DNA of 64,000 nucleotides from Bacteroidota bacterium (lineage in GTDB: Bacteria; Bacteroidota; Bacteroidia; 2-12-FULL-35-15), in contig CANFLQ010000001.1 in assembly GCA_947447995.1 (NCBI GenBank), forward strand, positions 25,372 to 89,371, given 5' to 3'. Below the pieces are notes generated by a model. That model did no database searches. It was not told the origin of the DNA and saw nothing but the letters and a program-made list of their open reading frames with translations. Position 1 is the stretch's first letter. The number at the start of each line of letters is the position of its first letter. Positions 12,469 to 55,150 of this stretch are shown here, one piece after another. The position numbers and the translations under genes were made by a program.

Positions 12469-12491
12469 CCCCTGATTTTCAGGGGTTTTTT
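12469..12491 (+). terminator. Rho-independent terminator after tRNA (CAU)
   Basis: CCCCTGA (12469-12475), loop TTT, TCAGGGG (12479-12485), then TTTTTT. Confidence 0.8.
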
Positions 12492-12610
12492 ATTTATTAA
12501 TAACCACCATTTTTTATAAGTGTGATGATAAATGTTGAGTAGTAATCAAAATTTGTTTGTTACCTATAAAACAAGTAATTTCGCAAATAAAAACTATAAA
12601 ATAAAAAACA

Positions 12611-21083: not shown

Positions 21084-22085
21084 TTAAAATTTAGGACACG
21101 GGATAAGTAATCCATATTTTTTACTTTTCTTTTTGAGTTTACAAAGCTGATATGACAATGTTACCTCTTGAGCTCCACTTGTTAACCCTTTTAATTTAGA
21201 AATTGTTAAATCGTAACTATAACCTATATTTAGTCTATTTGCCTGTACCCCTATAATTATAGCTACGGCATCGTCATTTCTATAACCAGGCTTGTAGGCT
21301 TTTAACAGAGGTATTCCTCTATACCATAATCCCAAATTAAAAATATATTGTGTATAATAAAAACCAACATCCAACTGATCGAATTTTTTTTGTCCACGGT
21401 AATTAAATGCAGGTGAGATATATCTTCTTTGAAAGGGATCATTTTCCCCATTATTAAGTGGGATTTTTGCCCCCCCATGCAAGCTATATTTAAGTGGCAT
21501 ATTGGTTTCTCCATTTACTAGAGATGTATTTGGCTGAGTAAGATGGTAAAAAGAAGTACCCAACCATAATTTTTCAGAAAATACCAATGCTCCAGCTCCC
21601 ACATCAAAGTATACTTTATTTTGGGTAGGTGTTTCCATTGATGGAACGTTACCCCCTCTTGCTATTTGATCTCCGAAATATAAATCATTAAAATTAATGC
21701 TTCGGATTCCAATACCCGGCTGAAAGCCAAAACGTATGCCAACTTTTCTGCTTATTTTTAATCCATAAGAAATCATTGGATTAATAATGGTAGTTTTTAA
21801 TTGTCCTGATCCGGCTACATCATTACCAAATAAGAATCCTACGCCTAAATTATATTTTTGAATATAGTGATCGCCCGAGAGTAAAAAAGATTTATATGCC
21901 GTTGTAATCCCAGGCCATTGATTTCTATAAGTCAACGAAATTCTTGAGCATACGTTTGATCCTACAAATGCAGGATTAAGATACAATGGTGATGCGTAGA
22001 ACTGTGTAAAATGCATATCCTGACCTTTTACAAGGTTAGAGCAAAAAATAAAAAAGAATAATGTTATTTTAAAATAGTTATTCAT
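21084..22085 (-). CDS. Type IX secretion system membrane protein, PorP/SprF family
   Basis: 333 aa. Signal peptide, then QDMHFTQFYASPLYLNPAFVG and RNQWPGI, the hallmark N-terminus of PorP/SprF beta-barrels. It sits 107 nt downstream of the type-B CTD adhesin. Confidence 0.9.
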   Translation of the reverse strand: MNNYFKITLFFFIFCSNLVKGQDMHFTQFYASPLYLNPAFVGSNVCSRISLTYRNQWPGITTAYKSFLLSGDHYIQKYNLGVGFLFGNDVAGSGQLKTTIINPMISYGLKISRKVGIRFGFQPGIGIRSINFNDLYFGDQIARGGNVPSMETPTQNKVYFDVGAGALVFSEKLWLGTSFYHLTQPNTSLVNGETNMPLKYSLHGGAKIPLNNGENDPFQRRYISPAFNYRGQKKFDQLDVGFYYTQYIFNLGLWYRGIPLLKAYKPGYRNDDAVAIIIGVQANRLNIGYSYDLTISKLKGLTSGAQEVTLSYQLCKLKKKSKKYGLLIPCPKF

Positions 22086-22192
22086 TTTGTTATATTAAAC
22101 CATTAATAATAGCATTATTTAAAAATTTTTCTAAATACAAACTTTGCAACATAAAGGTTCATATCTATTCGTTTTACTTGAATTTTATTTTT

Positions 22193-25100
22193 TTATCGTA
22201 AAAGCGTTATATCCCCTGTTTTATTAAATTCTTTGCCATTATTAAGTTTTAAATATGCTTTCCAAATATACACATCCTGTTGACATAATTGTCCTCTATA
22301 ATATCCATCCCAACCAATATTTATATCGTTTGATTCAAAAATAAGTTCACCCCAACGATTAAATATTTCCAATTTATATTTTAAAACACCTGAAGTGAAA
22401 GGAAAAAATACATCATTTGAAAAGTCGTTAGGGTCATAAATTCCACCATTTGGACCTTTTGTGTTAGGACTAAAAACATTTGGAAAAGAAAAATCAGTAT
22501 TTGTTGTTATTTGCCCATACGCAGTATCCGAACATGAATACTTTGATGTTGCTATTAATTGGATATTAAAAATACCTACCGATCTGTAGTCATGTACTGG
22601 ATTATAGTCGGTAGATGTTCCTCCATCGCCAAAATTCCAATTATAAATACTAGCACCAACAGTATTATTGGAAGGTTTTAATTTTTCAACAGGAATATTT
22701 AATACTGGCGTATTTACCTTAAAATCTGCAGTAGGATAGCTGTGTGCTTCAATAGTATATGATGCCGTTGCATTATTTGAGGAACATCCACCAACTGTAC
22801 CAATTGTTAAGTTTATAAAATAAGTACCTTCTCGATTAAAGGTATGTTTGGGATTTTGTTCAGAAGAAAATGTACCATCCCCAAAATTCCAATTCCATGA
22901 TATAATTGGATCAAATACATTACCTATAACCGATTTATCAAAAAATTGCAAAGAACCAGGAACACATAAAACATTCGTGTCGGAACCTATGCTAAGTATT
23001 GGTTGAGGATTAAAAGTAATATCAACGGAATCAACCGCATACGTATTACATACCGCACTATAAGCTGTTACAACATAAGTTGTAGGCTGTAAAGGGGTAA
23101 CTATAAATTCACCTGAACCTGAGCCTAATCCATTATCCCACTGATAAGTTAATGGTCCAGCACCTGCCAATGCTTTAGCGGATATAACGGAACTTCGTCC
23201 TTTACAAATAGGTGAAATTGCCATGGCATCAATACTTCCTGAACTTAAAAAATAAGCATGTGCACTAACTGTATCTGCTGTCCCTGGGCACCCTGTCTTA
23301 TCATACCCTACTACAATATATGTAGTGTCGCCAGTTGGAACAATATTTAAAATTCCTGCATTTATAACTCCTGTTGGTTGCCAAGCATAATAATAATTTC
23401 CAACACCTCCTTTTGCCACTGCTGTAAGTTTTGCAGTTTGACCTACACATACAGAATCATCTAATCCTGCTATGGTAATAACTTGAGACGGCTCTGTTAA
23501 TTTAACACTACTTTTAGTTTGGCATGCATGGGTATCTGTTACAGTAATTGTATAAGAACCTGTATATAAATTTTCAACGCTTCCAGATAATAATGAATCA
23601 TTACTCCAAGAATACTTATAAGGAATTGTTCCACCTGTAGCTATAACAGACGCTTTTCCTTTTAATCCATAACAAAGTGGATTAGTCTTACTACTTATTG
23701 AGGATAACAATACCGCTGGTTGAGTTATGTCAATTGAAATTTTTTGTACACAGCTATTATAATCTGTTACATTTACAGTATAAGTACCTGCAATTAAATT
23801 AGTAATAGCTGATATACTCTCTCCTGTAGGCAACCATAGATAGGAATAAGGGAAGGTTCCACCTGTTGGACTTACGGTTATAGAACCTGAACTGTCACCG
23901 TTACACAAAATATTTTTTTGAGAAACAACAGAAATACCTAATGCCAAAGGTTCTAAAACCGTTGCATTAACAATTGATATACATCCTAATGAATCAGATA
24001 CATTAACAGTATATGTACCCGAGTTTAAAAAAGTAGCTGTTAAATTATTACCACCAAATGGCAACCAATTAATGGTGTATGGTGGTAAACCTTTTGTTAT
24101 ACTAATTGTTGCGGAACCATCATTACCACCATAACAAGATACCGAATCTATTGATGAAACAATTACAGTTGATTTAGGAATATCTACTAATTGTTGTGTA
24201 AGTAATAATGTACAGTTATGTGAATCAGTAATTTGTAAAGTATAGGTTCCAGAACCTACTGAAGTTAGTTTTGAATTTGTTGTTGAACCAGGACTCCATA
24301 AATAAGTATAAGGTGGATTACCTCCCGATATTTGAGACGTTATTGAACCATTTGGTAATTCACAAGACTGGCTTACAAATAAAAGATTACCAATAATAGG
24401 AGTTGGTTCTGAAACCATTACTGAAGTATTTGTTTTACAGCCATTATTATCAGTTACTAAAATGAAATATTGTTGAGCACTCAATCCTGTAACACTTTTT
24501 GCAGTGCTAGCAATTGGACTCCAAGCATAGGAATAGTTAGCTGTACCGCCAACCGGATTTATAGTTGCTATTCCATCGGCACTTCCAAAACAACTAGTTA
24601 TACCATCAACACCTGTTGCGGAAAGTGGCGTAAGAGGTTGTGTTATGTTTACTGTAGCCGAAGTAGAACAGTTATTAATATCCGTTACTAATACAGTATA
24701 AGTATTTGCCAACAAACCTGCTGCCATATCACTATTACCTCCAATTGGTAACCATTGGTAACTATACACAGGTACACCTCCACTAACAACTACAGAAGCT
24801 TCACCGTTGCTACCCTGATAACAACTAACATTTTTAACAGGTGTAATATTGGCAGTTAATAAATTTGGTTGAGTTATTGTAAATGGAAATAATCTTGAAC
24901 AATTATTTGCATCTGATACTTGTAAAGTATATGTTGCAGCTGAAAGATTAGTTATGCTTGTACCTGTTGTACCGCTTGGTAGCCATAAATAAGTATAATT
25001 AGGAGTACCACCAGATGAATTTACCGTAGCGGCTCCATTACTTAAACCAAAACAACTTACCATAGTTTTAGAAATAACAGGCGCTATTATGGTTGATTGA

Positions 25101-41988: not shown

Positions 41989-44919
41989 ATGACAAAGCCT
42001 TTAGAAATAGAAAAATTAAGTCCCAAGGAATACATCCTTATTAAAGGTGCAAGAGTTCATAATTTAAAAAATATAGATGTTGCTATTCCTCGAAATAAAT
42101 TAATTGTCATTACAGGATTATCAGGTTCAGGTAAATCATCATTAGCTTTTAATACGCTATATGCAGAGGGGCAACGTCGATATGTAGAGAGTTTATCATC
42201 CTATGCTCGTCAATTCCTTGGAAGAATAGACAAACCTGATATTGATTATATAAAAGGAATTTCACCTGCAATTGCTATAGAACAAAAAGTAATTTCACAT
42301 AACAGCCGCTCTACAGTTGGTACCTCAACCGAAATTTATGATTATTTGAAATTACTTTTTGCAAGGATTGGCAAAACATATTCCCCTGTTTCTGGCAATT
42401 TGGTAAAGCGGGATACTGTTCAAGATGTTGCCGAATATATTAATTCGTTTCCAAATGAAACAAAGATACTTATACTTGCCCCATTAAAAAAACAAGAAGG
42501 AAAAAGCATCAATGATCAATTAAACTTGCTTATACAACAAGGTTTTATACGCATTCGGTTTAAAGGTGAAATTATTAAAATAGAGGATGCGCTTGAAACA
42601 AAGTTTTCTAATAATGATGAGATTATTATTGTAATTGACCGAATTAGCCTAAAATTAGGTGATGAAGATAATGACAATAGAATTTCAGACTCTGTACAAA
42701 CAGCCTTTTACGAAGGTGGGGGGGAATGTTTGGTGGAAATAATAAATCAGAAGTTAGAAGACGGAAGCCTGAAATTACAAGTAGACAAGAAAAAAGGAAA
42801 AAGGAAACAACCAACGTTAGACAAAAAGGAAAAAGAAACTAGAATTCGTCAATTCTCCAATAAATTTGAACTGGACGAAATAACCTTTGAAGAACCTAGC
42901 GTGCATTTTTTCAGTTTTAATAACCCCATTGGTGCCTGCAAAACCTGCGAAGGATTTGGAAGTGTTATTGGCATTGATGAAGACCTTGTTATTCCAAATA
43001 AAAATTTATCAATATACGAAGATGCAATTGTTTGCTGGAAAGGTGAAAAAATGAGTGAATGGAAAAATGTGTTGGTAACCAATGCTCATAAATTTGATTT
43101 TCCGATTCATCGACCATACTATGATTTATCCGCCAAAGAAAAAAAACTCATCTGGTCGGGCAATAAACATTTTGAAGGATTAACAAGCTTTTTCAAACAC
43201 CTGGAAGAACAAGCATATAAAATCCAATACCGCGTTATGTTATCGCGCTATCGCGGAAAAACGGGTTGTCCGGATTGCAAGGGCACTCGCTTACGACACG
43301 ATGCATCTTATGTTAAAATTGCCGGAGTATCTATTATGGAAGTAGTATTAATGCCTATAACGGATGCGTTAACTTTTTTCAAAAATATTGAATTATCAAA
43401 ATACGATACCGAAGTTGCCAAACGAATTTTAATTGAAATTATTAATCGTTTGGAATTTATGGATGATGTAGGTTTAGGTTATCTAAGCTTAAATCGTTTA
43501 TCAAACACGTTATCTGGTGGGGAATCACAGCGTATAAATTTGGCAAAATCATTGGGTAGCAGTTTAGTAGGCTCCATGTATATTTTAGATGAACCTAGTA
43601 TTGGTTTGCACTCCAGAGATACCGACCGTTTGATAAAAGTACTATTATCGTTAAGAAATATAGGTAACACAGTTATTGTGGTAGAACACGACGAAGAAAT
43701 TATGCGTGCTGCTGATCAAATAATTGATATAGGTCCGCTGGCTGGAACAAACGGGGGGGAATTAATTTTTCAGGGAAATCATACTGATTTGGAAACAGAG
43801 GAAAACAGCCTAACTGCACGTTATTTAACAGGAAAAGAAAAAATACCTATCCCTTCTCAAAGAAGAAAATGGAACAATTTTATTGAACTGAAAGCTGTTC
43901 GTGAAAATAATTTAAAAGGTTTTGATGTAAAGTTCCCTTTAAATGTATTGACAGTTGTTACAGGCGTTAGCGGTTCCGGAAAAACATCATTAGTAAAACG
44001 TGTTTTATATCCCGCATTAAAAAAAATATTTGGGGGCTTTGGAGAACAAACAGGCAGTTTTGAAAAACTTGGTGGTGATTTAAAAGCTATTTCAGCAATT
44101 GAAATGATTGATCAAAACCCAATTGGTAAATCATCCCGCTCCAATCCTGTTACCTACGTAAAAGCTTATGATGAAATTAGAGCGCTATTTGCAGATCAGG
44201 CATTGGCTAAAAACAGAGGATATAAACCATCTAACTTTTCATTTAATGTAGATGGCGGCAGATGCGAAGTATGCGAAGGGGATGGCGAAGTAACTATTGA
44301 AATGCAGTTTATGGCTGATATTCATTTGGTTTGTGAAGCCTGCAACGGCAAACGTTTTAAACAAGATATTTTAGAAATTACCTATACCCCATCTTCAACT
44401 TTAGGTGCGGCTCCTAAAAACATTTCCGACATATTAAATATGACGGTTGATGATGCTATCTCATTTTTTGATTCGCCTCAGCGACCAAGTACATTGGAAA
44501 AAAAAATAGTTCAAAAATTAAAACCATTATTAGATGTAGGTTTAGGATATATCCATTTAGGTCAGCCTTCCAGCACGTTGAGCGGCGGCGAAGCTCAACG
44601 GATAAAACTGGCATCTTTCCTTGGAGCTGGGCAAAACAGCAATACTCCTACTTTATTTATATTTGATGAACCTACAACTGGGTTACATTTTCATGATATT
44701 TCAAAACTACTAGATGCTTTTAATGCGCTTATAAAACAAGGGCATTCTTTAATTATTATTGAGCATAATGCCGATATAATTAAATGTGCGGATTGGGTAA
44801 TTGACCTTGGTCCAGAAGGTGGTATTAATGGTGGAAATATTATTTTTGAAGGTGTGCCAGAAAATCTTATCAAATGTAAAAAATCGTATACTGGTCAATA
44901 TTTAAAGGGGAAATTGTAA
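41989..44919 (+). CDS. uvrA: Excinuclease ABC subunit A
   Basis: 976 aa. GLSGSGKSSLAFNTLYAEGQRRYVESLSSYARQF, two ABC modules (second Walker A GVSGSGKTSL), and zinc modules CKTCEGFG / CPDCKG / CEVCEGDG...CEACNG. Confidence 0.97.
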   Translation: MTKPLEIEKLSPKEYILIKGARVHNLKNIDVAIPRNKLIVITGLSGSGKSSLAFNTLYAEGQRRYVESLSSYARQFLGRIDKPDIDYIKGISPAIAIEQKVISHNSRSTVGTSTEIYDYLKLLFARIGKTYSPVSGNLVKRDTVQDVAEYINSFPNETKILILAPLKKQEGKSINDQLNLLIQQGFIRIRFKGEIIKIEDALETKFSNNDEIIIVIDRISLKLGDEDNDNRISDSVQTAFYEGGGECLVEIINQKLEDGSLKLQVDKKKGKRKQPTLDKKEKETRIRQFSNKFELDEITFEEPSVHFFSFNNPIGACKTCEGFGSVIGIDEDLVIPNKNLSIYEDAIVCWKGEKMSEWKNVLVTNAHKFDFPIHRPYYDLSAKEKKLIWSGNKHFEGLTSFFKHLEEQAYKIQYRVMLSRYRGKTGCPDCKGTRLRHDASYVKIAGVSIMEVVLMPITDALTFFKNIELSKYDTEVAKRILIEIINRLEFMDDVGLGYLSLNRLSNTLSGGESQRINLAKSLGSSLVGSMYILDEPSIGLHSRDTDRLIKVLLSLRNIGNTVIVVEHDEEIMRAADQIIDIGPLAGTNGGELIFQGNHTDLETEENSLTARYLTGKEKIPIPSQRRKWNNFIELKAVRENNLKGFDVKFPLNVLTVVTGVSGSGKTSLVKRVLYPALKKIFGGFGEQTGSFEKLGGDLKAISAIEMIDQNPIGKSSRSNPVTYVKAYDEIRALFADQALAKNRGYKPSNFSFNVDGGRCEVCEGDGEVTIEMQFMADIHLVCEACNGKRFKQDILEITYTPSSTLGAAPKNISDILNMTVDDAISFFDSPQRPSTLEKKIVQKLKPLLDVGLGYIHLGQPSSTLSGGEAQRIKLASFLGAGQNSNTPTLFIFDEPTTGLHFHDISKLLDAFNALIKQGHSLIIIEHNADIIKCADWVIDLGPEGGINGGNIIFEGVPENLIKCKKSYTGQYLKGKL

Positions 44920-44999
44920 TTTAAGTTACCTTTTCCTCTTTGTATTTATTTCAAAAATCAGTTATAATGGTTATTTACAATTTTACAATTAATGATCTT

Positions 45000-45446
45000 T
45001 TACAATGTATCATTAATTGTAATTGACGGGGTATTTATTTCATTACTCCAATGCCCCGCACGATCCTTTAATTTAATTGATAAGGTTGACAACTCCTGTT
45101 TACCATTGCCCAATAAAAACATGGTGTTTATTTTCACTTGTATGGTTCCATTAAATTTAAGTTCGTGCCCCAAAGGTGCTAATGGCTGAACATGATACCA
45201 ATCTGCAGCCGATAGCCTACTATCCTTTACACCTAATGAATATTCGTCTGGCGATTGATCTCCAATATCTCCGTTATTATCTTTATATTTTATTGTTACT
45301 AAAATCGAATCTTTAAACTGAGCAATATTAGTTGGTGTAACATTAACCAATTCAATAACAGGAACAGGGTCAAGTGTTTTTTCCTTTTTTTTACAAGAAT
45401 ATAAAGCAAAAGAGGATAGAATAATTAAAAATAAATATTTCATCAT
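45000..45446 (-). CDS. Small lipoprotein, beta-sandwich-like, unknown function (operon gene 5)
   Basis: 148 aa. The lipoprotein leader ends ALYSC. The start lies 1 nt after the upstream gene's stop. Confidence 0.6.
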   Translation of the reverse strand: MMKYLFLIILSSFALYSCKKKEKTLDPVPVIELVNVTPTNIAQFKDSILVTIKYKDNNGDIGDQSPDEYSLGVKDSRLSAADWYHVQPLAPLGHELKFNGTIQVKINTMFLLGNGKQELSTLSIKLKDRAGHWSNEINTPSITINDTL

Positions 45447-45447
45447 A

Positions 45448-46404
45448 TTATTGAATTTTTAAAGCAAAGTACCCTGCTATATTATCACTTGTTCCGTTGT
45501 TAGGTATTTCTGTTGACATACCCTGACTTCCATCATTAATATAAGCTCTTACATAAATATAATTACCTGGCAAATATCCATTAGTAGAAATAGTTGTTTT
45601 GTGCATATACTTCCCCGTAATTCCTGTAAAATCATTTCCAGTTAAACTAGCAGACGAATATGTAATTGATGTTGATGTTGATGTTGTAAAAGAGAACATT
45701 GATTTTGATAATTTACAAGTATTGTTAACAAAACCTGTGGCGGAAGTAGAGTCGTCCGAAATTAAGAACCAAAGATCAATTGAGCTGTTTGCTGGAACCA
45801 TAATTGGAGCAATATTGCCTCCAGCTCTGGAATACGGACTAGATGTGTTTCCAGCGGAAAATGCTAAAAAGCCCGATATAACAGGTTGTTTATTCCCCAT
45901 TTTAGGATAGTTCCCAAACATATCTTTTGATCCTGCATTGATCCAGTTTTTAATCGCCAAAATATTATCGTCCTTTACGTTATTCCAATTATCTTGAGGA
46001 TACAGGGGCATTGTACCACTTCCCATAACCACTGTCATACGATGATATAAAATAGACGAATCTGCCTTATAAGGAAAAACCCTGTATCGAAACTTATTTC
46101 CGCTGGTGTTTACAGGTTTTTGATATACCATTGTATTATATGAGCTTGTAATTGTTCTATAATCGGGAGGAAAGGTACCATCGTGACAACCTGAATTTGC
46201 ACAAGTTGGTTGAAATATTTTAGATTGTAAATATGCAAAATTAGATGGGTCGATTGAAGCTAAATCGTTTATTAATATAGGCGCTTTTAAAGAAGAGTCA
46301 TCATAAGGATTTACAAATTTATCTTTTTTACACGCCGCAACAATTAGCAAACAAAGGCTAATACCAAATAAAGAAATAAATATATTTTTAGATTTTAGTT
46401 TCAT
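45448..46404 (-). CDS. Lipoprotein with a PSCyt-like (Planctomycete cytochrome-c-like) segment carrying C-x4-CH (operon gene 4)
   Basis: 318 aa. The leader ends IVAAC. LQSKIFQPTCANSGCHDG ... VFPYKADSSILYHRMT ... GTMPLY ... ILAIKNWINAGSKD follows the PSCyt domain pattern. Confidence 0.65.
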   Translation of the reverse strand: MKLKSKNIFISLFGISLCLLIVAACKKDKFVNPYDDSSLKAPILINDLASIDPSNFAYLQSKIFQPTCANSGCHDGTFPPDYRTITSSYNTMVYQKPVNTSGNKFRYRVFPYKADSSILYHRMTVVMGSGTMPLYPQDNWNNVKDDNILAIKNWINAGSKDMFGNYPKMGNKQPVISGFLAFSAGNTSSPYSRAGGNIAPIMVPANSSIDLWFLISDDSTSATGFVNNTCKLSKSMFSFTTSTSTSITYSSASLTGNDFTGITGKYMHKTTISTNGYLPGNYIYVRAYINDGSQGMSTEIPNNGTSDNIAGYFALKIQ

Positions 46405-46419
46405 ACAACCAACTAATTT

Positions 46420-47814
46420 TTAATTTTTATCAAACAATGATCCTGCACCTGATGCCAACATTCCTGCTCCCATTACTTCCGATTTTAACCCTAAAATATC
46501 GGCAATAGTTGGAACAATATCCGCTGTTTTCCATTGTCCGCTAAATGCAGGATTATTGGCACTATTTACAGTAGCGTTGAGCGGCATATTGGGGCCTGCC
46601 ATTAAACAAAATACATCCAGTGTATTAGTGTCTGAATGGTCGTAGCCATAAAAATTATTTTCCGAATCTTTAATCAAATTAGGGGTTAAATCCCTTCCGC
46701 ATTCAGGAACAGCAATAATAGTGGTGTTTCCAGCCATTACTGAATCTTTTTGAATAAAGTCCCACAAATGCCCTACAGCATGGTCGGCTCTATGAAGTGC
46801 TCTTAAATAACCAGTAAAACCACTGTGGCAAGTATCAACAGCACTTAAATTTACAACAGTTAATTTAGGTTTAAATTCTTTCATCACTTCACAAGCATAA
46901 CCAACTGTTGCTGTATCTCCATTTCCTGCATCTGCGTGAGCAGGAGGAAAAGCAATTGTTCCTGCAGCGGTTTTGGTAAACATGCTTTTCATAAATAACT
47001 TGATCTGATTTTTTTCATCATCGGTATTTCCCAAACTAGGAAATGATCTTCCAATATTTTCAAAACTATTGTCTAAAAAATATTTCATTTCGTACATGGG
47101 AGCTAACTGATCTAAAGGATGGTAAACCTTTGCGTCTTTTAAATATTGGTCGCCTTTAGGACCAAAAGTGATGGTTGGAGCAAAAAAGTTAGCACCATAT
47201 TTTATTCCATATCCTGGATGTTCACTGCTATTTAATAAAGGCAAAGAATTGCCTATGCCATTTCCTACAAACCAAACTTTTGATGCAGGAAAATCAGTAG
47301 GACCACCGTGTCTTCTCAAATATTCAAATATGGTAGGATTAATTGGACGTTGTTTTAATCCTTGAGAATACAAGGTATTGCCTTGCAACAAAGCGTTTAA
47401 TCCACCATAATGACCTGGCGAGCTACTTTTCATTTCAGTAAAAAGCATACCTTGTTGTTGTAAGCTTTGTGATAAAAGGGGGGTAAAAGGTGTTTGCCCA
47501 CCAGCACCTTTACCATATAATATTTTACTTGCTGGAGCTGCCCCTACAAGCATGTTGTTCATAATGTTTCCTGTTACATTTAACTCTGGTTTAGCCAATG
47601 TTTGTGCATAAGGCATTTGACTGGCCTTTAAATATTGTTGTCCTATACTTTCCTGATAACGCACTCCTCCAGCAAACATAACTAGTACCACATGATTGGC
47701 TTTTGGTGCAGCGCCAGTTCCTGCAAACAGTCTTCCAGATGGAAGAATATAAGGAACAATAAATGCTCCAGCAGCTGCTAATCCTGTTTTTTTTATAAAA
47801 TCTCTTCTTTTCAT
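46420..47814 (-). CDS. Tat-exported DUF1501-like / alkaline-phosphatase-superfamily protein (operon gene 3)
   Basis: 464 aa. Twin-arginine leader MKRRDFIKKTGLAAAGAF, plus VVLVMFAGG, VDTCHSG, PECGRDL and YGYDHSD blocks resembling DUF1501. Confidence 0.7.
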   Translation of the reverse strand: MKRRDFIKKTGLAAAGAFIVPYILPSGRLFAGTGAAPKANHVVLVMFAGGVRYQESIGQQYLKASQMPYAQTLAKPELNVTGNIMNNMLVGAAPASKILYGKGAGGQTPFTPLLSQSLQQQGMLFTEMKSSSPGHYGGLNALLQGNTLYSQGLKQRPINPTIFEYLRRHGGPTDFPASKVWFVGNGIGNSLPLLNSSEHPGYGIKYGANFFAPTITFGPKGDQYLKDAKVYHPLDQLAPMYEMKYFLDNSFENIGRSFPSLGNTDDEKNQIKLFMKSMFTKTAAGTIAFPPAHADAGNGDTATVGYACEVMKEFKPKLTVVNLSAVDTCHSGFTGYLRALHRADHAVGHLWDFIQKDSVMAGNTTIIAVPECGRDLTPNLIKDSENNFYGYDHSDTNTLDVFCLMAGPNMPLNATVNSANNPAFSGQWKTADIVPTIADILGLKSEVMGAGMLASGAGSLFDKN

Positions 47815-47838
47815 TTTAAAATGTATTTTTAACAGATA

Positions 47839-48354
47839 TTAGTAAAACATGTATTCATTGGATAAAGCAAATGAAACATATACTAATTCAGGTAATATGG
47901 TATCAGTAGGGGTTATGTGCGATGTAATATAATTATTAAAATATGTTTTTTCAGCTTCGGTAGGATTACGTATCAAAAAACGATTATACGTATCCAAAAT
48001 AAATTTATTAAGGTTACCTGCCATTTGAGCTTTAGTAGGTATTATTGTTCCTGGTTTATTCATCATATTGCTAACAACTACTTCCCTTGCTATTTCCTGA
48101 TCACCAATAGATTGCATACATTGGTTAATATCAAAAATTTGGTTGGCCGATAATGCCTTTTGAAACAAATTAGCATATAAAATAGCAACGTATTGCTCGT
48201 TTGTTTTTAGTTTTGTTTTTCCTGCGGTAGGTGGCAATAGTTCAACTTGATTCACGTCGTAAGATCTATCTTTTTCCTTCCTACACCCCGAAAGCGTTGT
48301 AGTTATAACAAATGTCAGACATATAATGGTTCTTAAAATATATTGTTTGTTCAT
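47839..48354 (-). CDS. Lipoprotein with helix-x-P-x3-E repeats (operon gene 2)
   Basis: 171 aa. The leader ends TLSGC. Motifs YVAILYANLFQKALSANQI and FILDTYNRFLIRNPTEAEK. C-terminal ALSNEYMFY. Confidence 0.6.
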   Translation of the reverse strand: MNKQYILRTIICLTFVITTTLSGCRKEKDRSYDVNQVELLPPTAGKTKLKTNEQYVAILYANLFQKALSANQIFDINQCMQSIGDQEIAREVVVSNMMNKPGTIIPTKAQMAGNLNKFILDTYNRFLIRNPTEAEKTYFNNYITSHITPTDTILPELVYVSFALSNEYMFY

Positions 48355-48361
48355 TCCTTAT

Positions 48362-49279
48362 TTATTTAAAGTTTGCATATTCGTTGGTTCCCATAATTCT
48401 CATCTGTAATTTTTGAAGATTATGATCCTTATAAAAAGTCATCATTTCGGTATAAAGCTCCTGTGTTGATGGTTCCCTTGCCAATAAATTTTTATACATC
48501 CACCTTACTATACCCTCGTAAAATTCTTTAGAATTAACTAACACCTGAATGTAATCCCCCTTACTTTGCCCTGACATTCCCATTAATACAGACGGAAGAT
48601 TATGCTCTACCATATCATAAGCTGCATTAAATTCATTGGCTGTTGGATATCTAAAAAGCAAATCGTTAAAGGTGGCATTTATAAAATTAAAAGAATTCAT
48701 ATTTATTTTATCATAAATAGCATTGTTTACCATTTGAGCAAATACATCTTTTATCTGAATGGAATCTGTTCGGTAATTTTGCTCACAATTCATAGTTTCC
48801 ACTAAATTTCTTACTTGTCGTTTATCTAAGGAAAAATTTAAACTGTCGCCAGCTATAGAATCCGAAATGGCTGCAAATGAAATTTCACCCAATCTTTCAT
48901 TAATTGCAGCATTGGATGCAGCTTCCAGCACCCTAGCTTTGCTTAATTCATAAAACCGATTATAATACGCGTATTTGTAGGACGAGTCGCCAGGAATGTA
49001 AGCCGTATTGGTTTGTAATTTAGTAATCAATTGTTCTCTGGATATTACACTAAGTCCATTTGCTCTTAATGTATTTTCTTCACTAATCATTTCAGCATCC
49101 AAGGGTTCGCGACCTATCAAATCAATAAAAAGGCGATTGATATAGTTTTCTAAGGTTACTTTGGGAATTGCACCGTAATAAGGAGCATTGTTATTTGTAT
49201 AAATTATAACTTCCGGATCTTTCTTACAACTCGAAACAATAAGCAGTATAAGAGATAAAGGGAATAAAAATTTTTTCAT
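48362..49279 (-). CDS. Lipoprotein with three DUF1549/DUF4214-like helix-GxxP repeats (operon gene 1)
   Basis: 305 aa. The leader ends LIVSSC. Motifs YINRLFIDLIGREPLDAEM, FINATFNDLLFRYPTANEF and IVRWMYKNLLAREPSTQEL. Confidence 0.65.
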   Translation of the reverse strand: MKKFLFPLSLILLIVSSCKKDPEVIIYTNNNAPYYGAIPKVTLENYINRLFIDLIGREPLDAEMISEENTLRANGLSVISREQLITKLQTNTAYIPGDSSYKYAYYNRFYELSKARVLEAASNAAINERLGEISFAAISDSIAGDSLNFSLDKRQVRNLVETMNCEQNYRTDSIQIKDVFAQMVNNAIYDKINMNSFNFINATFNDLLFRYPTANEFNAAYDMVEHNLPSVLMGMSGQSKGDYIQVLVNSKEFYEGIVRWMYKNLLAREPSTQELYTEMMTFYKDHNLQKLQMRIMGTNEYANFK

Positions 49280-49462
49280 TTTGTTAATAGGAGATAAAAT
49301 TTAAACAGGCGCTAAATTATAGTTTAATTTAATGTTTTGTAAACGTACAAAAAAATATTTTTTTATAAAACAGATTTCATTTATTTAATACAATCTAAAA
49401 ACAAATCGTTTTGGTAAAGCTAATTTAGTATTTTTACTTCCAATTCATTTATTTAAAAAATT

Positions 49463-49966
49463 ATGGCAATTAATTTTAAAACAAAACTGAAAGGAGTAAA
49501 AACCTTTATTTTTGATGTGGACGGTGTACTTACCGACAATACAGTAACGCTTTTGCCTGAAGGAGAACAAGTGCGTACCATGAATATTAAGGATGGATTT
49601 GCATTGCAATTGGCTATAAAAAAAGGGTATAAAATAGCCATTATTTCAGGCGGAAAATCCGAAATGGTTCGTAAACGATTAAATGGATTAGGTATTTTTG
49701 ATGTGTATTTAGGTGCAAGTGATAAAATAGAACAATTTAATGAATATATTTTAACATATAATTTGAATCCTGAAGAAATACTTTATATGGGCGATGATGT
49801 ACCCGATTATGATGTAATGAAACGCATTGGAGTACCAACCTGCCCTAATGATGCTGTTCAAGAAATTAAAGGTATAAGTATTTATGTTTCCGATAAAAAA
49901 GGTGGAGAAGGTTGTGTGCGTGATGTTATTGAACAGGTAATGAAAGTTCAAGGGGCTTGGCTTTAA
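49463..49966 (+). CDS. kdsC: 3-deoxy-D-manno-octulosonate 8-phosphate phosphatase (HAD-IIIA)
   Basis: 167 aa. FIFDVDGVLTD, IKDGFALQLA and YMGDDVPDYDVM are HAD motifs I-III in the KdsC arrangement. Confidence 0.88.
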   Translation: MAINFKTKLKGVKTFIFDVDGVLTDNTVTLLPEGEQVRTMNIKDGFALQLAIKKGYKIAIISGGKSEMVRKRLNGLGIFDVYLGASDKIEQFNEYILTYNLNPEEILYMGDDVPDYDVMKRIGVPTCPNDAVQEIKGISIYVSDKKGGEGCVRDVIEQVMKVQGAWL

Positions 49967-49996: not shown

Positions 49997-52900
49997 TTAC
50001 CTTACCAAAGTTATATTTCCTAGGTATTTTTTTTCTTTACCAAAGCCATCTTTAATTACTATCGAGTAAACATATATATCCTGAGGACAAGCGGCTCCTT
50101 TGGTGTCATCACCTTTCCATGCAGCAGTTATATCTGTTGTATAAAACAATTGTTCTCCCCAGCGATTAAATATTCTAAACTCAAAACCGTTAGCGGTTAA
50201 TCCTGAAGATTTAAAACTAAATCCATCATTCACTCCATTCTCATCAGGGGTAAATGCATTTGGTATGTAAATTAATAAGTCAGGAATAATTCTTACATCA
50301 TGAAAAACGCTATCAACACAACCTCCGTTAGAAACCACGCGCAACCCAATAACAAATGTGCCTGTATCTGCATAAGTGTGTTGAGGATTTTGCTCTATTG
50401 AAGTTCCTGCATCGCCAAAATTCCAAGTCCATGAAGCAGCATTTGTAGATTTATCAACAAATGTAATGTTTGCTTTACTTAAATTAATAGTTGATAAATC
50501 ATCGAATGCAGCAGTAGGAACAGGGAATGCCGTTACCCTTCCTACTCCCGTAGAAGAACAGTTTGCTACCGATTTTCCTGTAACCGTGTAAAGTGTTGTT
50601 ACATTTGGGTTTACCGTAATGCTAAAACCGCTAGCTCCTCCTGGCATCCAAATATATGTTGATGCTCCATTTGCTGTTAGTGTGGCTGGCAAACCAGCAC
50701 ATATACTTACACTACTAACTGTAACAGTTGGCGTTGTTATTACTACTACCTTACTAATAACAGTACTTGAACAACCCGCAGTAGTGCCTGTAACTGAATA
50801 AGATGTTGAGGTTGTTAATGCAGGTGTTGTTACCGTTGGCGTTGAACCAATATTAGGCAACCACGCATAGCTTGTAGCTCCTGTAGCTATTAAACTTGCT
50901 GTTTGTCCCGAACAAATAGTTACACTATTTACTCCAACAACAGGTATTGGATTTACACTAACCGTTTTTGAAGCAGTAGCGGAACAACCTGCTGTAGAAG
51001 TTACAGTTACAGTATATGGTGTAGTGGTTGCTGGACTAACTGTTATAGAGTTTCCTAAACCGCCAGACGACCACGCATAACTTGCAGCCCCTACTGCAGA
51101 TACCGTTAAAATGGAGGATTGTCCAAAACAAATTGAGCTAGGAACAGCTGATATGATTGGAACTGGCGTAGCATTGACATTAACAGTGGCATACGCTACA
51201 CCATTACAGCCAACTGTTAGTCCTGTTCCAGTAACTGTATAGGTAGTAGTAACCGTTGGGTTTACATTAATTGACGATGTGGTTTGAACTGGTATTGTTG
51301 ACCATGAATAGGATGTACCGCCATTGGCTGTTAATGTTGCTCCTGTAGAACCGGAACATATTGTTGCATCCGTTGTTAATATACTTGGGGCTGAACCTAC
51401 CGTAATTTTACCAATAGCTGTAGCTGTACATATTCCTATAGTACCTGTTACAGTATAGTTAGTAGTGGCAATAGGGCTATCGGTTAATTTTGATCCTGAA
51501 GAAGTACCCCCTCCTACCCAAGTGTAAGTGGTTGCCCCTGTTGCCGTTAATGTTGCTGGAGTTCCAGGACAAACCGATGCTGGAGGCGGTATAATGCCTA
51601 CTACAGGAGCTTGAGTAACGGTAATTGTACTTGTTGCTGAAGAAAAGCAACCTGAAGTTGTGCCTGTTACTGTATAGCTTTGTGTGCTTGCAGGATTATG
51701 AGTTAAATTTTGATTGCCTGTACCTGAAGGTGTTCCGCCACCTACCCATGTATAGGAAGTAGCTCCGGTAGCTGTTATTGTTGCCGTAGTTCCTGCACAT
51801 ATTGTTTCCGATGTTACAGAGGTTACAGGACTTGGATTTATTGTAACTACTACAGAATCTTTGGCAAGCGAACATCCACCACCAGCAGCAATTGTATTTG
51901 TTACTGTATAAGTATTAGCGGTACTTCCTACCAAATTAATCTCTCCTGTAAATTTATTTACAAAGGATAAACCTGATGGTGATACCGAAAATACTCCAGG
52001 AGTAGCGCCCAACAATTGAGTAATTTTAGGGTTAACTGTTGCTGTTTTACAATATGGTCCAGCATAACTAAATGTAGCATCTGGTATACCTACAATAGTA
52101 ACGGTTAATGTATAGGTGTTTGAACAAACTCCAGCAGTAGTTGTATGTATTATATCGTATTTGCCCAAAGCCGTTGCTGCGTCTACACTTATAGCACCTG
52201 TTGAAGTATTTAAGTTTAAAGCACCTAGAGGGGTAGTACTAAAGTTTCCGCCAACTGCCACTGTAGGTGTATATGTACCAGTTACATTACAAAAAGTAAC
52301 ACCTGAGTAGCTAAAGGATGCGTCATCTGGTGGCGTTACAGGAATAGTTACAACCGTAAATCCTGTACAACCATTTGCTGCTCCAGTAACAGTATAAGTA
52401 ATAGTTGTTGTTGGAGTGGTAGTAGTTGTTGCTCCTGTAGTAGCAGTAAGAAAATTAGGCGGTGCCCATGTGTAAGTATTTGCACCTGCAGCAGTTAATG
52501 TATTACTAGCTCCAATACAAACACTACTGTTACCTAAAACGGTAATATTTAGTGATGGAGTAACGGTAACATCAGCAACAAACGTGTTGCTACAGCCATT
52601 AACATCTTTACCTGTTACCGTATACGAAGTTGAAGTTGAAAGTATAGAGCTTGTAAACGAGGCATTGGTAGATGCTCCTGGTTGCCACATATAACTAACC
52701 ACACCACCAGAAGCAGTTAAATTTGCACTTTGTCCTTGACAAATTGTAGCGGAATTGGATGTAATAACAGGTAAATCATTAATAGTAATGCTTCCGCTTT
52801 CAACTTCAGGACCACAGCCACCTGAGGTAGTTACTGTATAATTAAATACTCCAACTTGTGTAGATGTTCCATTTATTGTAAGTGTTCCCGACGCAAACGC

Positions 52901-55150
52901 GCTAGTAACACCTGTAGGTAAACCTGCAACAGTGGCATTTGTACCACCGCCACCAACAGAATAAGTAATTGGATCAATAGCAGTGTTACGGCAAAGCGTT
53001 TGAGCATTGGTACCAGTAGCTGAGGTTAACCCTATAGTAGCTTGCGTACAACAAGCTGTAAAAGTAACAACCGAAGTTGTTGAATTAGTACAACCTGCCG
53101 TTGTACCAGTTACCGTATAAGTAGTAGTACTTGGAGGATTTGCCGTAACACTAGCACCATTTGTAGCTGACAAGCCCGTTGATGGTGTCCAGGTATAGGT
53201 GGTAGCTCCTGAAGCTGTAAGTATTGCACTTGTACCTACACATACATATCCATTATTTGCAGTTATAGCTAACGGAATTATTTTATAGGTTAATATAACC
53301 TTACCTTTTGCTCCAGCACCACCTTTACCGCCATTGCCATCATCATTACCACCGCCACCACCACCGCCAGGTGCCGTTCCTGCAGAACCCGCACAATCAG
53401 GTAACAACGCCCCTCCTTGTCCACAGCCATCTCCGCCTGCCCCTCCGCCAGAAACCATTGTTCCTCCCTTAGCATTGGTTACTCCATTAGCAGCACTTAC
53501 TCCATTTTTACCATTTCCTCCGGGACCAGCCGAACCGCCGCCGCCGCCGCCTGATCCATTAGTCGATTGTGAATAATCTTTACCACCGTTTCCTCCTTTT
53601 AACATAATTACACCACCTACTCCTGTGATGCCGCCTAAACCCGAAGCGACATTACCACCACTATTACCACCTGTTCCACCGTAGGCTAAAATAGTAGTAG
53701 TATTTATAAACCAAGAATCGCTTCCATTACCTCCCTTTGATTGACTGCCTGCAGTTCCTCCTGCTCCAACCATCATATTGTATGTTGCGCCTCCAACCAC
53801 AGGGATAGAGCCAGATTTACTATAACCGCCGCCGCCGCCGCCGCCGCCAGATTTATCATTATCGGTACCACCACCACCACCGCCGCCACCGCCCCATACC
53901 TCAACAATAACAGAGGTTACACAGGCTGGAGCTGTCCATGTAGCTGCACCTGAATTGGTAAAAGCAACAGATACACAATTATCAACCTGAATTTTACTAA
54001 CAGCCGTAGAACTAATTCCGCAGCTTGTACCTGTAACTGTGTATGATACAGTACTTGTAACATTAGTAAGGTCTATAAAACTTGAAGTTGCACCATTTGA
54101 CCATTGGTAAGCCTGACATCCTTCGGCAAATAAGGTTACATCATTACCTGGACAAATAGTAACAGAATTAACAGTAACAGGAGAAAAAATAGTAACTGTT
54201 GCTATTGCTTTGCCAGAACAAGCTCCATTAGCGCCTGTAACAGTGTATGTTGTGGTGCTTGTTGGTGAAACGGTTATACTGCTGGTTGTTTCGCCATTGG
54301 GCAACCAAGCAAAGGATGTTACTCCACTTGCTGTTAGTGTAGCAGATTGTCCTAAACATATTTCTACACTATTAACTTTAGTGGGGTTGGTACCATAAGA
54401 AATTACTACCAATCCTGCACCACCCGCTCCACCTTTATTAGTTGCTGCGGCACCTGCTGTGGCAGTAGCTCCAGACCCTCCTCCTCCATAATCAGCACCT
54501 GCACCACCAGCACTTGACGATACACCTATGGCTCCAGCACCTCCAATAGGAAGTCCCACACCAATCAATCCTGGCGCTCCACCTGTTCCTGCAGATGCGT
54601 CTCCTCCATTTCCTCCAGCATTGGCAGCTCCCCCACCAGCCCCACCAGCAGCACTATTGTTACCTGTAGCTCCGTTACCTCCCGCATATACAAAACCTAC
54701 ATCACCTAAACAGCCAGCGGAAGAACCTGCACCAGCAGCACCATTAGCTCCTGCTGCTGCATTTGCACCTCCAGCACCACCTTTGGCTATAACTGTTGAT
54801 GCGTCAATAAACCATGAATCGCCACCTGTTGCACCATTATTGGTTGTAATACCAGCAGCACTAATATTGTAGGAAGTACCAGGCACAACAGTTATCTTTT
54901 TTCGTACGTATGCCCCTCCTGCTCCGCCGCCACCAGCACTTGACTGAATAAAACTACTAGTTGCGCTCCCCCCAGATCCGCCAGCACCCCAACATTCTAC
55001 AACAATTTCTGTAACACAAGGTGGTGCTTGCCATGTTGTATTTTGTCCAGAAAAATACACTGCAGTATCCTGAGCTTGCAATTGATTTGCAAATACTATT
55101 ATAAGAGCTATAGCGCCTATCTTAGAGATAAAAATATTGTAGACTTTCAT
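49997..55150 (-). CDS. Giant surface protein (1717 aa): two glycine-rich domains, many Ig-like modules, a PKD domain and a T9SS type-B C-terminal sorting domain
   Basis: Signal peptide. Two modules start TWQAPPCVTEIVVECWGAGGSGG and TWTAPACVTSVIVEVWGGGGGGGGG. About 15 modules follow the pattern ICxGxxAxLTAxGAxxYxW. PKD WTWNFGDAG. C-terminus IPNAFTPDENGVNDGF...RIFNRWGEQLF...GNITLVR. Confidence 0.92.
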   Translation of the reverse strand: MKVYNIFISKIGAIALIIVFANQLQAQDTAVYFSGQNTTWQAPPCVTEIVVECWGAGGSGGSATSSFIQSSAGGGGAGGAYVRKKITVVPGTSYNISAAGITTNNGATGGDSWFIDASTVIAKGGAGGANAAAGANGAAGAGSSAGCLGDVGFVYAGGNGATGNNSAAGGAGGGAANAGGNGGDASAGTGGAPGLIGVGLPIGGAGAIGVSSSAGGAGADYGGGGSGATATAGAAATNKGGAGGAGLVVISYGTNPTKVNSVEICLGQSATLTASGVTSFAWLPNGETTSSITVSPTSTTTYTVTGANGACSGKAIATVTIFSPVTVNSVTICPGNDVTLFAEGCQAYQWSNGATSSFIDLTNVTSTVSYTVTGTSCGISSTAVSKIQVDNCVSVAFTNSGAATWTAPACVTSVIVEVWGGGGGGGGGTDNDKSGGGGGGGGYSKSGSIPVVGGATYNMMVGAGGTAGSQSKGGNGSDSWFINTTTILAYGGTGGNSGGNVASGLGGITGVGGVIMLKGGNGGKDYSQSTNGSGGGGGGSAGPGGNGKNGVSAANGVTNAKGGTMVSGGGAGGDGCGQGGALLPDCAGSAGTAPGGGGGGGNDDGNGGKGGAGAKGKVILTYKIIPLAITANNGYVCVGTSAILTASGATTYTWTPSTGLSATNGASVTANPPSTTTYTVTGTTAGCTNSTTSVVTFTACCTQATIGLTSATGTNAQTLCRNTAIDPITYSVGGGGTNATVAGLPTGVTSAFASGTLTINGTSTQVGVFNYTVTTSGGCGPEVESGSITINDLPVITSNSATICQGQSANLTASGGVVSYMWQPGASTNASFTSSILSTSTSYTVTGKDVNGCSNTFVADVTVTPSLNITVLGNSSVCIGASNTLTAAGANTYTWAPPNFLTATTGATTTTTPTTTITYTVTGAANGCTGFTVVTIPVTPPDDASFSYSGVTFCNVTGTYTPTVAVGGNFSTTPLGALNLNTSTGAISVDAATALGKYDIIHTTTAGVCSNTYTLTVTIVGIPDATFSYAGPYCKTATVNPKITQLLGATPGVFSVSPSGLSFVNKFTGEINLVGSTANTYTVTNTIAAGGGCSLAKDSVVVTINPSPVTSVTSETICAGTTATITATGATSYTWVGGGTPSGTGNQNLTHNPASTQSYTVTGTTSGCFSSATSTITVTQAPVVGIIPPPASVCPGTPATLTATGATTYTWVGGGTSSGSKLTDSPIATTNYTVTGTIGICTATAIGKITVGSAPSILTTDATICSGSTGATLTANGGTSYSWSTIPVQTTSSINVNPTVTTTYTVTGTGLTVGCNGVAYATVNVNATPVPIISAVPSSICFGQSSILTVSAVGAASYAWSSGGLGNSITVSPATTTPYTVTVTSTAGCSATASKTVSVNPIPVVGVNSVTICSGQTASLIATGATSYAWLPNIGSTPTVTTPALTTSTSYSVTGTTAGCSSTVISKVVVITTPTVTVSSVSICAGLPATLTANGASTYIWMPGGASGFSITVNPNVTTLYTVTGKSVANCSSTGVGRVTAFPVPTAAFDDLSTINLSKANITFVDKSTNAASWTWNFGDAGTSIEQNPQHTYADTGTFVIGLRVVSNGGCVDSVFHDVRIIPDLLIYIPNAFTPDENGVNDGFSFKSSGLTANGFEFRIFNRWGEQLFYTTDITAAWKGDDTKGAACPQDIYVYSIVIKDGFGKEKKYLGNITLVR
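53827..53849 (-). repeat. (CCG)7 trinucleotide microsatellite encoding poly-Gly
   Basis: CCGCCGCCGCCGCCGCCGCCGCC on the plus strand equals (GGC)7 on the coding strand, within KSGGGGGGGGYS. A second NCC x9 run lies at 53868-53894. Confidence 0.9.

Follow-up and report, generated by a model that had tools for sequence, protein, structure and literature searches.

A conserved five-gene operon for exported proteins in Bacteroidota is probably a split and re-ordered relative of DUF1501 enzyme-partner gene pairs

Here we describe five adjacent minus-strand genes, referred to as A to E, in a 64,000-nucleotide stretch of the genome of a Bacteroidota bacterium (NCBI GenBank assembly GCA_947447995.1, contig CANFLQ010000001.1, positions 25,372 to 89,371; this whole stretch is called the window). 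We consider it probable that the block is one conserved cell-envelope operon and a diverged, split and re-ordered relative of the gene pairs in which a DUF1501 enzyme is encoded beside a large partner protein. A split, re-ordered variant is the best supported reading because gene C, genes A and B (in the correct order and reaching the C-terminus) and the CX4CH motif of gene D all map to one and the same gene pair of Planctomycetota. The five open reading frames (ORFs; lengths in amino acids, aa) and their boundaries are as follows.

Gene A: 48362-49279, minus strand; 305-aa ORF with the lipoprotein leader ...LIVSSC-KKD (lipobox ...VSSC18)
Gene B: 47839-48354, minus strand; 171-aa ORF with the lipoprotein leader ...TLSGC-RKE (lipobox ...LSGC24)
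Gene C: 46420-47814, minus strand; 464-aa ORF with the twin-arginine leader MKRRDFIKKTGLAAAGAF; presumed catalytic subunit
Gene D: 45448-46404, minus strand; 318-aa ORF with the lipoprotein leader ...IVAAC-KKD (lipobox ...VAAC25)
Gene E: 45000-45446, minus strand; 148-aa ORF with the lipoprotein leader ...ALYSC-KKK (lipobox ...LYSC18)
Spacer: 49280-49462, minus strand; AT-rich, 183 nucleotides (nt), shared with the divergent kdsC-like gene; presumed promoter region of gene A
HAD/KdsC-like gene: 49463-49966, plus strand; divergent, upstream boundary of the five-gene block
uvrA: 41989-44919, plus strand; convergent, downstream boundary of the five-gene block

The ORF listing reproduced the five minus-strand ORFs, lengths, gaps and boundaries given in a first-pass annotation of this DNA, with gaps of 7, 24, 15 and 1 nt between A and B, B and C, C and D, and D and E, respectively. 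The export leaders that it had proposed, four of the lipoprotein type and a twin-arginine (Tat) leader on C, could likewise be read from the translations, and every motif that it had quoted was recovered (VVLVMFAGG, VDTCHSG, PECGRDL, YGYDHSD and five helix motifs). The GC content of the block (0.30-0.37) is that of its surroundings, nothing hinted at a phage or defence origin, for which no dedicated search was made, and the exact sequences of all five proteins are present in public collections under the name 'hypothetical protein' only. Public gene calls differ over the start of gene E (147 versus 148 aa), whose ORF opens with two Met codons (MMKYL); counted from the first of these, E starts 1 nt past the stop codon of D.

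To place the block in a wider context, we scanned one genome per GTDB species with the C-family alignment and examined the 80 best loci for synteny. A relative of C is encoded in at least 560 species-level genomes, mostly metagenome-assembled genomes (MAGs) of Flavobacteriales, and nearly all of the 80 best loci belong to Flavobacteriales/Bacteroidia MAGs labelled Crocinitomicaceae, Cryomorphaceae or Vicingaceae; a cultured carrier of a C homologue is Sanyastnella coralliicola (P0115). Tblastn searches with the five window proteins located B and C in all 80 loci, D in 79, E in 73 and A in 70, at 33-82% identity, and wherever the genes are present they lie on one strand in the order A-B-C-D-E. 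Where a gene is missing, the contig ends there, the sole exception being one locus that has no A (L051), and E follows D in 73 of the 80 loci, all seven absences of E being contig ends. Intergenic spacing is short or overlapping across the related loci, and the lipobox cysteines and the RR motif are conserved among homologues. Because ordered homologues with identities of 35-87% recur across 80 species-level loci, the genes are real rather than chance ORFs, and since neither uvrA nor the kdsC-like gene is a neighbour of the operon in any of the 80 related loci, the conserved unit consists of exactly the five genes. The co-conservation of five exported products, which the first-pass annotation had proposed to examine by a neighbourhood survey, thus held in 80 loci, and the block is a real, conserved operon that has so far gone unannotated. 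From spacing and synteny we infer that the five genes are co-transcribed.

Two of the loci deserve mention in their own right. In the complete chromosome of a Bacteroidia MAG (OZ260106.1, L051, positions 5631-7994), B-C-D-E occur without A and a gyrB-like gene precedes B; gene A has therefore been lost or relocated in at least one lineage. A single MAG, assembly DAOORM01, carries two copies of the operon on separate contigs (L017 and L048), whose C proteins are 62% and 58% identical to that of the window; the two copies are either paralogues or the product of a mixed bin.

The leader of C begins MKRRDFIKK, and in the C-family alignment (A1) R3 and F6 are invariant and R4 is kept in at least 90% of sequences. 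Pfam TAT_signal was matched by 9 of 42 C homologues, and window C scored 15.4 bits against the Tat signal model TIGR01409 (cut-off 16.7). An AlphaFold2 (AF2) model of C built from 42 sequences (predicted local distance difference test score, pLDDT, 78; predicted template modelling score, pTM, 0.83) gave 398 matches in the PDB at an expectation value (E) of 1e-3 or below when searched with Foldseek, the best at about 1e-8; sulfatases, alkaline phosphatases, NPP or LtaS-type enzymes make up all of the top 50 listed. The model therefore predicts an alkaline-phosphatase-superfamily fold, upholding the placement of C made in the first-pass annotation, and since the template modelling (TM) scores reach only about 0.4, C is far from any solved structure. 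PDB sequence searches with C alone and with the C profile returned nothing or noise. Among Pfam families, Phosphodiest (PF01663) was matched at E 0.004 (17.3 bits against a cut-off of 23) with only the D-x-x-H region covered, and by 12 of the 42 homologues; the Sulfatase model (PF00884) gave E 0.11 and 12.2 bits, which falls short of family membership. More distant relatives of C match Phosphodiest, Sulfatase and Metalloenzyme.

The active site of C was read from alignments, not from a superposition. On this reading, the metal motifs of the superfamily, D-x-x-H and D-H, are still present in C, as are two conserved arginines. Its first strand ends in G-G-V-R where phosphodiesterases have D-G-x-R, the usual first-strand Asp being lacking, and the alignment contains no conserved Ser/Thr/Cys nucleophile before H135. 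The formylglycine motif C/S-x-P-x-R is absent from both the C sequence and the alignment, and C falls outside the NPP/type I phosphodiesterases in that it scores below 23 bits, has A-G-G-V-R at the end of its first strand and has variable residues ahead of H135. Because the metal motifs and arginines are kept while the first-strand Asp and the nucleophile are lacking, a chemistry other than that of classical phosphatases or sulfatases is to be expected, and C is unlikely to be either of these. Features specific to the Flavobacteriales proteins are an insert of about 40 residues (60-105), Cys329 and Cys372, and two stretches that are near-invariant in the C family: PYILPSGRLFA (residues 21-31), immediately past the hydrophobic part of the Tat leader, and the C-terminal end SLFD(K/R)x (residues 459-464). 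The former is absent from the Planctomycetota relatives, and conservation at the end of a cleaved signal peptide is unusual; the conservation of both stretches suggests docking motifs or an uncleaved anchor.

The link between C and DUF1501 runs through a family of Planctomycetota. The C profile A1 finds P0274 at E 4e-43; the P0274 group consists of 380-405-aa proteins that score 28.6 (P0274), 28.0 and 26.4 bits against DUF1501 (PF07394, cut-off 27). A homologue search from P0274 recovered a Tat-signal family of Planctomycetota; a precomputed PF07394 assignment is attached to many of its members and some are named 'DUF1501 family', and in the alignment of this bridging family (A6) 33 of 33 members match DUF1501 at E<=0.01, the best at 3e-10. 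Aligned with hhalign, A1 and A6 match with a probability of 100% and E 4e-54 over 369 columns, a span that starts at the RR motif and reaches the C-terminus. C and the bridging enzymes have a consensus identity of about 31% and FAGGVR, GHYG, NPT-FEY-R, D-x-x-H, PE[FC]GR and DH-x-D in common. Positions invariant in both families are G49-G50-V-R52, E55, G134-H135-Y-G and N-P-T-x-F-E164-Y-x-R167, as well as D327-x-x-H330, D344, P-E371-[FC]-G373-R374 and D392-H393-x-D395. From this transitive, full-length homology we conclude that C is a DUF1501-type protein on a diverged sister branch that current models miss. The DUF1501 assignment of the first-pass annotation thus stands in so far as C is homologous over its full length to a family whose 33 members all match DUF1501, and it does not stand as a direct HMM (hidden Markov model) match of C itself.

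The bridging enzymes are encoded beside partner proteins, three of which are compared with the window proteins here.

Locus L084: P0274 is preceded by the gene of a 902-aa protein, g902, with CGTSGCH at residue 53, a PKD domain and the end ...SAEYQMY
Locus L087: 1153-aa partner, L087_1153, with CNSTGCH at residue 266, PKD domains and the end ...SQEYLYY
Locus L085: 342-aa partner, L085_342, whose gene precedes the enzyme gene

The A-family and B-family HMMs match the bridging partners in the right order and up to the C-terminus. In L085_342 the A HMM matches residues 7-222 (E 9e-20), the region preceding the B match, and this protein is thus a fusion of A and B in one chain. Several partner-family models come close to their cut-offs on the same proteins: g902 scores 25.5 bits against DUF1800 (cut-off 26.1, model positions 217-419 of 419), and L085_342 scores 24.6 bits against PSCyt2/DUF1549 at its N-terminus (cut-off 29.8) and 26.8 bits against PSD1/DUF1553 near its C-terminus (cut-off 28.5), in the same region as the B-profile match. 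PSCyt1 was not matched at the N-termini of g902 and L087_1153. From the profile matches and these sub-threshold scores it follows that A and B correspond to parts of the partner: A would be the DUF1549-like part, and B the extreme C-terminal DUF1553/DUF1800-like part, of what is a single-chain partner elsewhere. The bridging gene pair itself sits at the edge of the DUF1501, DUF1800 and DUF1549-DUF1553 families. Collectively, bridging partners that hold CX4CH, PKD and A/B-like regions in one chain, together with the A+B fusion L085_342, bear out the proposal of the first-pass annotation that the modules of such a partner are here separate proteins. We also observed that, at L084 (positions 9197-13281), the two genes after the DUF1501-type gene encode a 1026-aa protein, which has ten CXXCH motifs as well as LVIVD repeats, and a 335-aa EF-hand protein, in that order; a deca-haem cytochrome and an EF-hand protein as neighbours make an electron-transfer and calcium context possible for the enzyme family.

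Protein A consists of helices throughout and holds three DUF4214/phycobilisome-linker-like repeats, whose centres are YINRLFIDLIGREPLDAEM, FINATFNDLLFRYPTANEF and IVRWMYKNLLAREPSTQEL; B has two DUF4214-like repeats, YVAILYANLFQKALSANQI and FILDTYNRFLIRNPTEAEK, with SNEYMFY as its C-terminal end. Window A scores 25.1 bits, below threshold, against PBS_linker, and against DUF4214 (PF13946) the scores of window A and window B are 20.9 and 22.0 bits, below the cut-off of 23.2. Sub-threshold matches to the same two models recur among 57 A homologues (DUF4214 in 34, PBS_linker in 26) and, for DUF4214, in 50 of 64 B homologues. PSCyt2/DUF1549 (PF07583, cut-off 29.8) has no match in window A and is found below threshold in 18 of the 57 A homologues, at best with E 4.5e-5; weak matches were also seen to DUF1800 (4 of 57) and PSD1/DUF1553 (2 of 57 A homologues, 1 of 64 B homologues). 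In a profile search against the PDB, A matched the linker repeats of ApcH/ApcE at E 3e-6 and was the only profile with usable PDB matches. Within the window proteins, hhalign matched residues 198-227 of A to residues 117-146 of B at 87%, and the internal repeat similarity is modest. The helical motifs of A and B are therefore closest to DUF4214 and phycobilisome-linker repeats and probably of the same repeat type, formally below the cut-offs. Of the two families that the first-pass annotation had likened these motifs to, DUF4214 is the closer, the DUF1549 signal being weaker and confined, below threshold, to the 18 A homologues. A phycobilisome-linker function for A was considered and rejected, since to our knowledge Bacteroidota have no phycobilisomes, and we read the match as a shared repeat fold.

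Protein D consists of an all-helical domain (residues ~45-165) and an Ig-like beta-sandwich (~175-318) in its AF2 model (pLDDT 84.6). Across 45 D homologues (alignment A2), P-T-C68-A-N-S-G-C73-H74-D-G, Y-R-V-x-P, S117, R122 and G-x-M132-P133 are invariant or nearly so, with C68, C73, H74, M132 and P133 invariant in all 45 sequences. In its spacing, CX4CH, the motif departs from PSCyt1, which has CXXCH. The AF2 model places a helix (56-64) before CX4CH, followed by short helices at 85-90 and 118-124, the Met, and a long helix at 140-156; such an order of helices around the motif and Met is typical of small c-type cytochromes. The first-pass annotation had assigned a PSCyt-like segment to D, and this assignment was not borne out: PSCyt1 (PF07635) and other cytochrome models of Pfam had no match in D, in 45 homologues or, at E<=10, in 21 isolated N-terminal domains, the motif is CX4CH, and when the whole model was searched with Foldseek, the matches (RhoGDI-like Ig folds and the Wzt carbohydrate-binding domain, E ~4e-4 to 1e-3) were confined to the C-terminal sandwich. 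A profile search of the PDB with the N-terminal domain found nothing, and the only Pfam echo of the isolated N-terminal domains was a faint match to the Geobacter CxxxxCH motif family PF09698 (E 0.086). The rare CX4CH spacing recurs in g902 and L087_1153 in the similar context F-x-x-x-C-x-x-[ST]-G-C-H. Because the N-terminal domain of D aligns with g902 and CX4CH recurs in both fused partners, D corresponds, in position and at the level of the motif, to the cytochrome-like module at the N-terminus of the partners. Covalent haem binding through the CX4CH motif is plausible.

Protein E is marked by the conserved motifs Y-x-D-x-x-G-D-[LI]-G-x-x-D-P-D, KDSRL, D-x-YH-x-x-P-L-x-P and DRAGNWS (alignment A5) and, judging from its sequence, is probably beta-rich. 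Pfam, NCBIfam and the bridging loci yielded no relatives of E outside the operon family. That E might be a duplicate of the D sandwich, or that A and B might be related to D, was rejected, as hhalign matched signal peptides only.

Several observations weigh against reading the block as a relative of the DUF1501 pairs. The direct family tests that the first-pass annotation had proposed came out negative throughout: in Pfam and NCBIfam scans, none of the five window proteins reached threshold for any family, including DUF1501, PSCyt1, PSCyt2, PSD1, DUF1800 and DUF4214. DUF1501 (PF07394, 27 bits) was not matched by C even at E<=1, nor by any of 42 family members, and the C-family profile had only 955 matches at E<=1e-3 among 1.84 billion representative proteins, which rules out that C merges with the main DUF1501 family at the HMMER level. 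Placing C closest to DUF1501 rests on one bridging family, and relatives also match Phosphodiest and Sulfatase. As for the partner modules, the N-terminal domain of D has no fold or HMM match to any cytochrome, its hhalign alignment with the N-terminus of g902 (CGTSGCH) reaches only 77% probability (pairwise E 2e-5, 122 columns), and haem binding by D, like the physical complex and its placement in the envelope, is a prediction. Lastly, the gene order is unlike that of the fused relatives, D lying after C, and E has no counterpart in them.

If the block is indeed a split relative of the DUF1501 pairs, its products might work together as follows. C would fold in the cytoplasm, probably take up its metal or cofactor there, and then be exported by the Tat pathway to dock in the periplasm onto the membrane-tethered lipoproteins. 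A and B may form a helical scaffold or substrate-binding part; we suggest this role because phycobilisomes use DUF4214/linker-type repeats to bind proteins. D would hold a covalent haem (or a metal) through CX4CH, with Met132 as axial ligand, and could pass electrons to or from the enzyme or substrate or report the redox state, while its Ig-like domain and the accessory protein E may bind substrate or membrane. The substrate of C itself may be an envelope component or an imported compound with an anionic group (phospho-, sulfo- or carboxy-), on which C would carry out a metal-dependent reaction. The deca-haem and EF-hand neighbours at L084, taken with a C protein that lacks the classical nucleophile, lean towards a redox-linked reaction over plain hydrolysis. 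In its most specific form, this would be a minimal, dissected member of a widespread class of extracytoplasmic redox-linked metalloenzymes, in which a nucleophile-less DUF1501-type C and a CX4CH mono-haem lipoprotein carry out an oxidative or reductive change of an anionic ester or glycan substituent, a proposal that we put forward as speculative and doubtful as it stands. Were it right, the small separate subunits in culturable Flavobacteriales such as Sanyastnella coralliicola would be the first tractable system for working out what the hundreds of PSCyt/DUF1549/DUF1553-DUF1501 pairs of Planctomycetes do.

Beyond the five genes, a recurrent neighbour was found downstream of E. In 50 of 63 related loci, E is followed on the same strand by a gene for a protein of about 1160 aa with an N-terminal CUB domain and a CHU_C type IX secretion signal (for example L011:10733-14215 and L038:13262-14296), and in 36 of the 63 a PorP/SprF gene comes after it. 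The window contains part of an ortholog of this CUB protein (2-1273, minus strand; residues 31-449 are 41% identical), which starts near 1273 and is cut off by the beginning of the window; its gene lies 44 kb away from the operon. Just past the divergent kdsC-like gene, 49997-55150 on the minus strand encodes a 1717-aa glycine-rich PKD-repeat protein with a CHU_C type IX secretion signal, of which only the C-terminal ~330 residues resemble the operon-adjacent CUB/CHU_C proteins of other genomes. At 21462-22603, also on the minus strand, tblastn found a CHU_C-like segment (22196-22603) with a PorP/SprF-like segment (21462-22031) directly downstream of it; together they form another pair of type IX secretion cargo and PorP in the window.

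Among transcription signals, the best sigma-70-like site of the region (49343-49316, minus strand, TTTACA-16-TATAAT, 11/12) falls inside the 49280-49462 spacer, and the number of sigma-70-like sites in the region equals the shuffle expectation. Internal promoters and intrinsic terminators are no commoner than in shuffled sequence and no internal terminator stands out; no Rfam riboswitch or leader RNA family was matched upstream of A. Between the convergent genes E and uvrA, an AT-rich inverted repeat whose 14-nt arms match perfectly and enclose a 12-nt loop (44983-44996 / 45009-45022) spans the stop codon of E; it does not match the G+C-rich terminator pattern and may be a bidirectional terminator or a binding site.

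Three other explanations of the block have to be weighed. The operon could encode a nutrient-scavenging hydrolase, in which C is a periplasmic phosphodiesterase, phosphatase or sulfatase, exported by the Tat pathway like PhoD, the lipoproteins are substrate-binding helpers and CX4CH is a disulfide or metal site that plays no redox part. This is the company in which the model of C finds its structural matches (sulfatases, alkaline phosphatases and NPP, Foldseek E ~1e-8); Phosphodiest is the only direct Pfam match of C (E 0.004) and recurs in 12 of 42 homologues, the more distant relatives add Sulfatase and Metalloenzyme, and the C-terminal domain of D weakly resembles the Wzt carbohydrate-binding sandwich. 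However, the TM-scores of about 0.4, the absence of C/S-x-P-x-R, the G-G-V-R in place of the first-strand Asp and the want of an evident Ser/Thr nucleophile all speak against such an enzyme, as does the identity of the full-length relatives, which are DUF1501-type rather than NPP or sulfatases; in the related loci, moreover, neither pst/pho genes nor a sulfatase-maturing enzyme is conserved beside the operon. We regard a scavenging hydrolase as unlikely.

A module for outer-membrane or surface assembly tied to type IX secretion or gliding, with C as a dead scaffold and the lipoproteins as surface-exposed adaptors for the CUB/CHU_C protein, would account for the CUB/CHU_C and PorP/SprF genes downstream of E and for a C protein without canonical nucleophile. 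It would also fit the Lys and acidic residues that follow the lipoprotein Cys (C-K-K-D/E) in all four lipoproteins, which we take to resemble Bacteroidota surface-export signals. Yet the CUB gene is 44 kb off in the window genome, so the link is not obligatory; C keeps a dense, active-site-like set of polar residues (D327, H330, D344, E371, R374, D392, H393, D395) and has no type IX C-terminal domain, and the Planctomycetota relatives are without type IX secretion, which together make this explanation quite improbable. Finally, the resemblance to the partner families might be convergence of promiscuous short repeats in an independent Flavobacteriales invention built around an alkaline-phosphatase-fold enzyme. 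DUF4214-type helices occur in many secreted proteins, the matches to the partner families all lie below curated thresholds, the similarity of A to B and among the repeats of A is weak, and D aligns with g902 at 77%. Against this, the homology of the enzyme is unambiguous, and C, A+B in N-to-C order reaching the C-terminus, and CX4CH all map to one gene pair of another phylum; this three-way correspondence makes convergence of short repeats very improbable indeed.

A split and re-ordered relative of the DUF1501 pairs thus remains the reading that we favour, and its interest lies in what it offers for the larger families. Planctomycetes and Verrucomicrobia count the DUF1501 proteins, together with the PSCyt/DUF1549/DUF1553 or DUF1800 partners, among their most expanded families, for which no function has been known since the first description. 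If the relationship holds, a recognisably related module is present in another phylum with each part a small separate protein. The split genes would give natural domain boundaries for the fused partner proteins, and residues conserved across the phyla would offer targets for mutation: R52, E55, H135, D327, H330, D344, E371, R374, D392, H393 and D395 in C, and C68, C73, H74 and M132 in D. Overall, this is a sizeable family fully missed by current Pfam models, and it would provide a simpler genetic and biochemical entry rather than a new principle.

Among known systems, PSCyt1-PSCyt2(DUF1549)-PSD1(DUF1553) partners have been described in Planctomycetota, Verrucomicrobiota and Lentisphaerota (PMC3542564; He et al. 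2017, PMC5615132). Clusters of DUF1501 with PSCyt1/PSCyt2/PSD1 often carry Tat signals and binding domains and have been proposed to act in electron transport, with no known function (Kamneva et al. 2012, PMC3542564); the twin-arginine signal is common in the DUF1501 family (PMC3542564). These modules are exported by the Tat or Sec route, hold cytochrome-like and binding domains and are strongly expanded in PVC (Planctomycetes-Verrucomicrobia-Chlamydiae) bacteria, with 'a few' in Bacteroidetes (PMC3542564, PMC5615132, PMC5122149). Like such pairs, the window operon places a Tat-signal enzyme of the alkaline-phosphatase fold beside partner modules, is conserved as an operon, and comprises a Cys-x(n)-Cys-His domain, a beta-sandwich and a helical region with motifs of the type R-x-x-[FY]-x-D-L-[IL]-G-R-x-P. 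Unlike them, it has its partner split into the lipoproteins A, B and D, with E in addition; the cytochrome-like piece comes after the enzyme gene and has CX4CH for CXXCH, the Pfam thresholds are not reached, the host is a member of the Bacteroidota, and most genomes seen have a single operon copy as opposed to dozens of paralogous pairs.

DUF1800 (PF08811)-DUF1501 pairs, which behave as operons (PMC5122149), resemble the window operon in that a helical exported partner is encoded immediately upstream of a Tat-signal DUF1501-type protein. In these pairs of Proteobacteria and other phyla, however, the partner measures about 450-500 aa, whereas A and B measure 305 and 171 aa, are lipoproteins and match below threshold, and the window operon adds a cytochrome-like lipoprotein and a fifth gene. 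DUF4214 (PF13946) and the phycobilisome linker REP (PF00427) give the best sub-threshold matches to the A and B repeats, a likeness that we take as a shared helical repeat and that implies no function beyond probable protein or ligand binding. The nearest relative that we found is the P0274 group of Planctomycetota, whose partners share CX4CH and A-like and B-like regions with the window. It differs in that its modules are fused in a 900-1150-aa PKD protein or in a 342-aa A+B fusion, in that its enzymes are without the ~40-residue insert, C329 and C372 of window C, and in that one locus adds a deca-haem cytochrome and an EF-hand protein.

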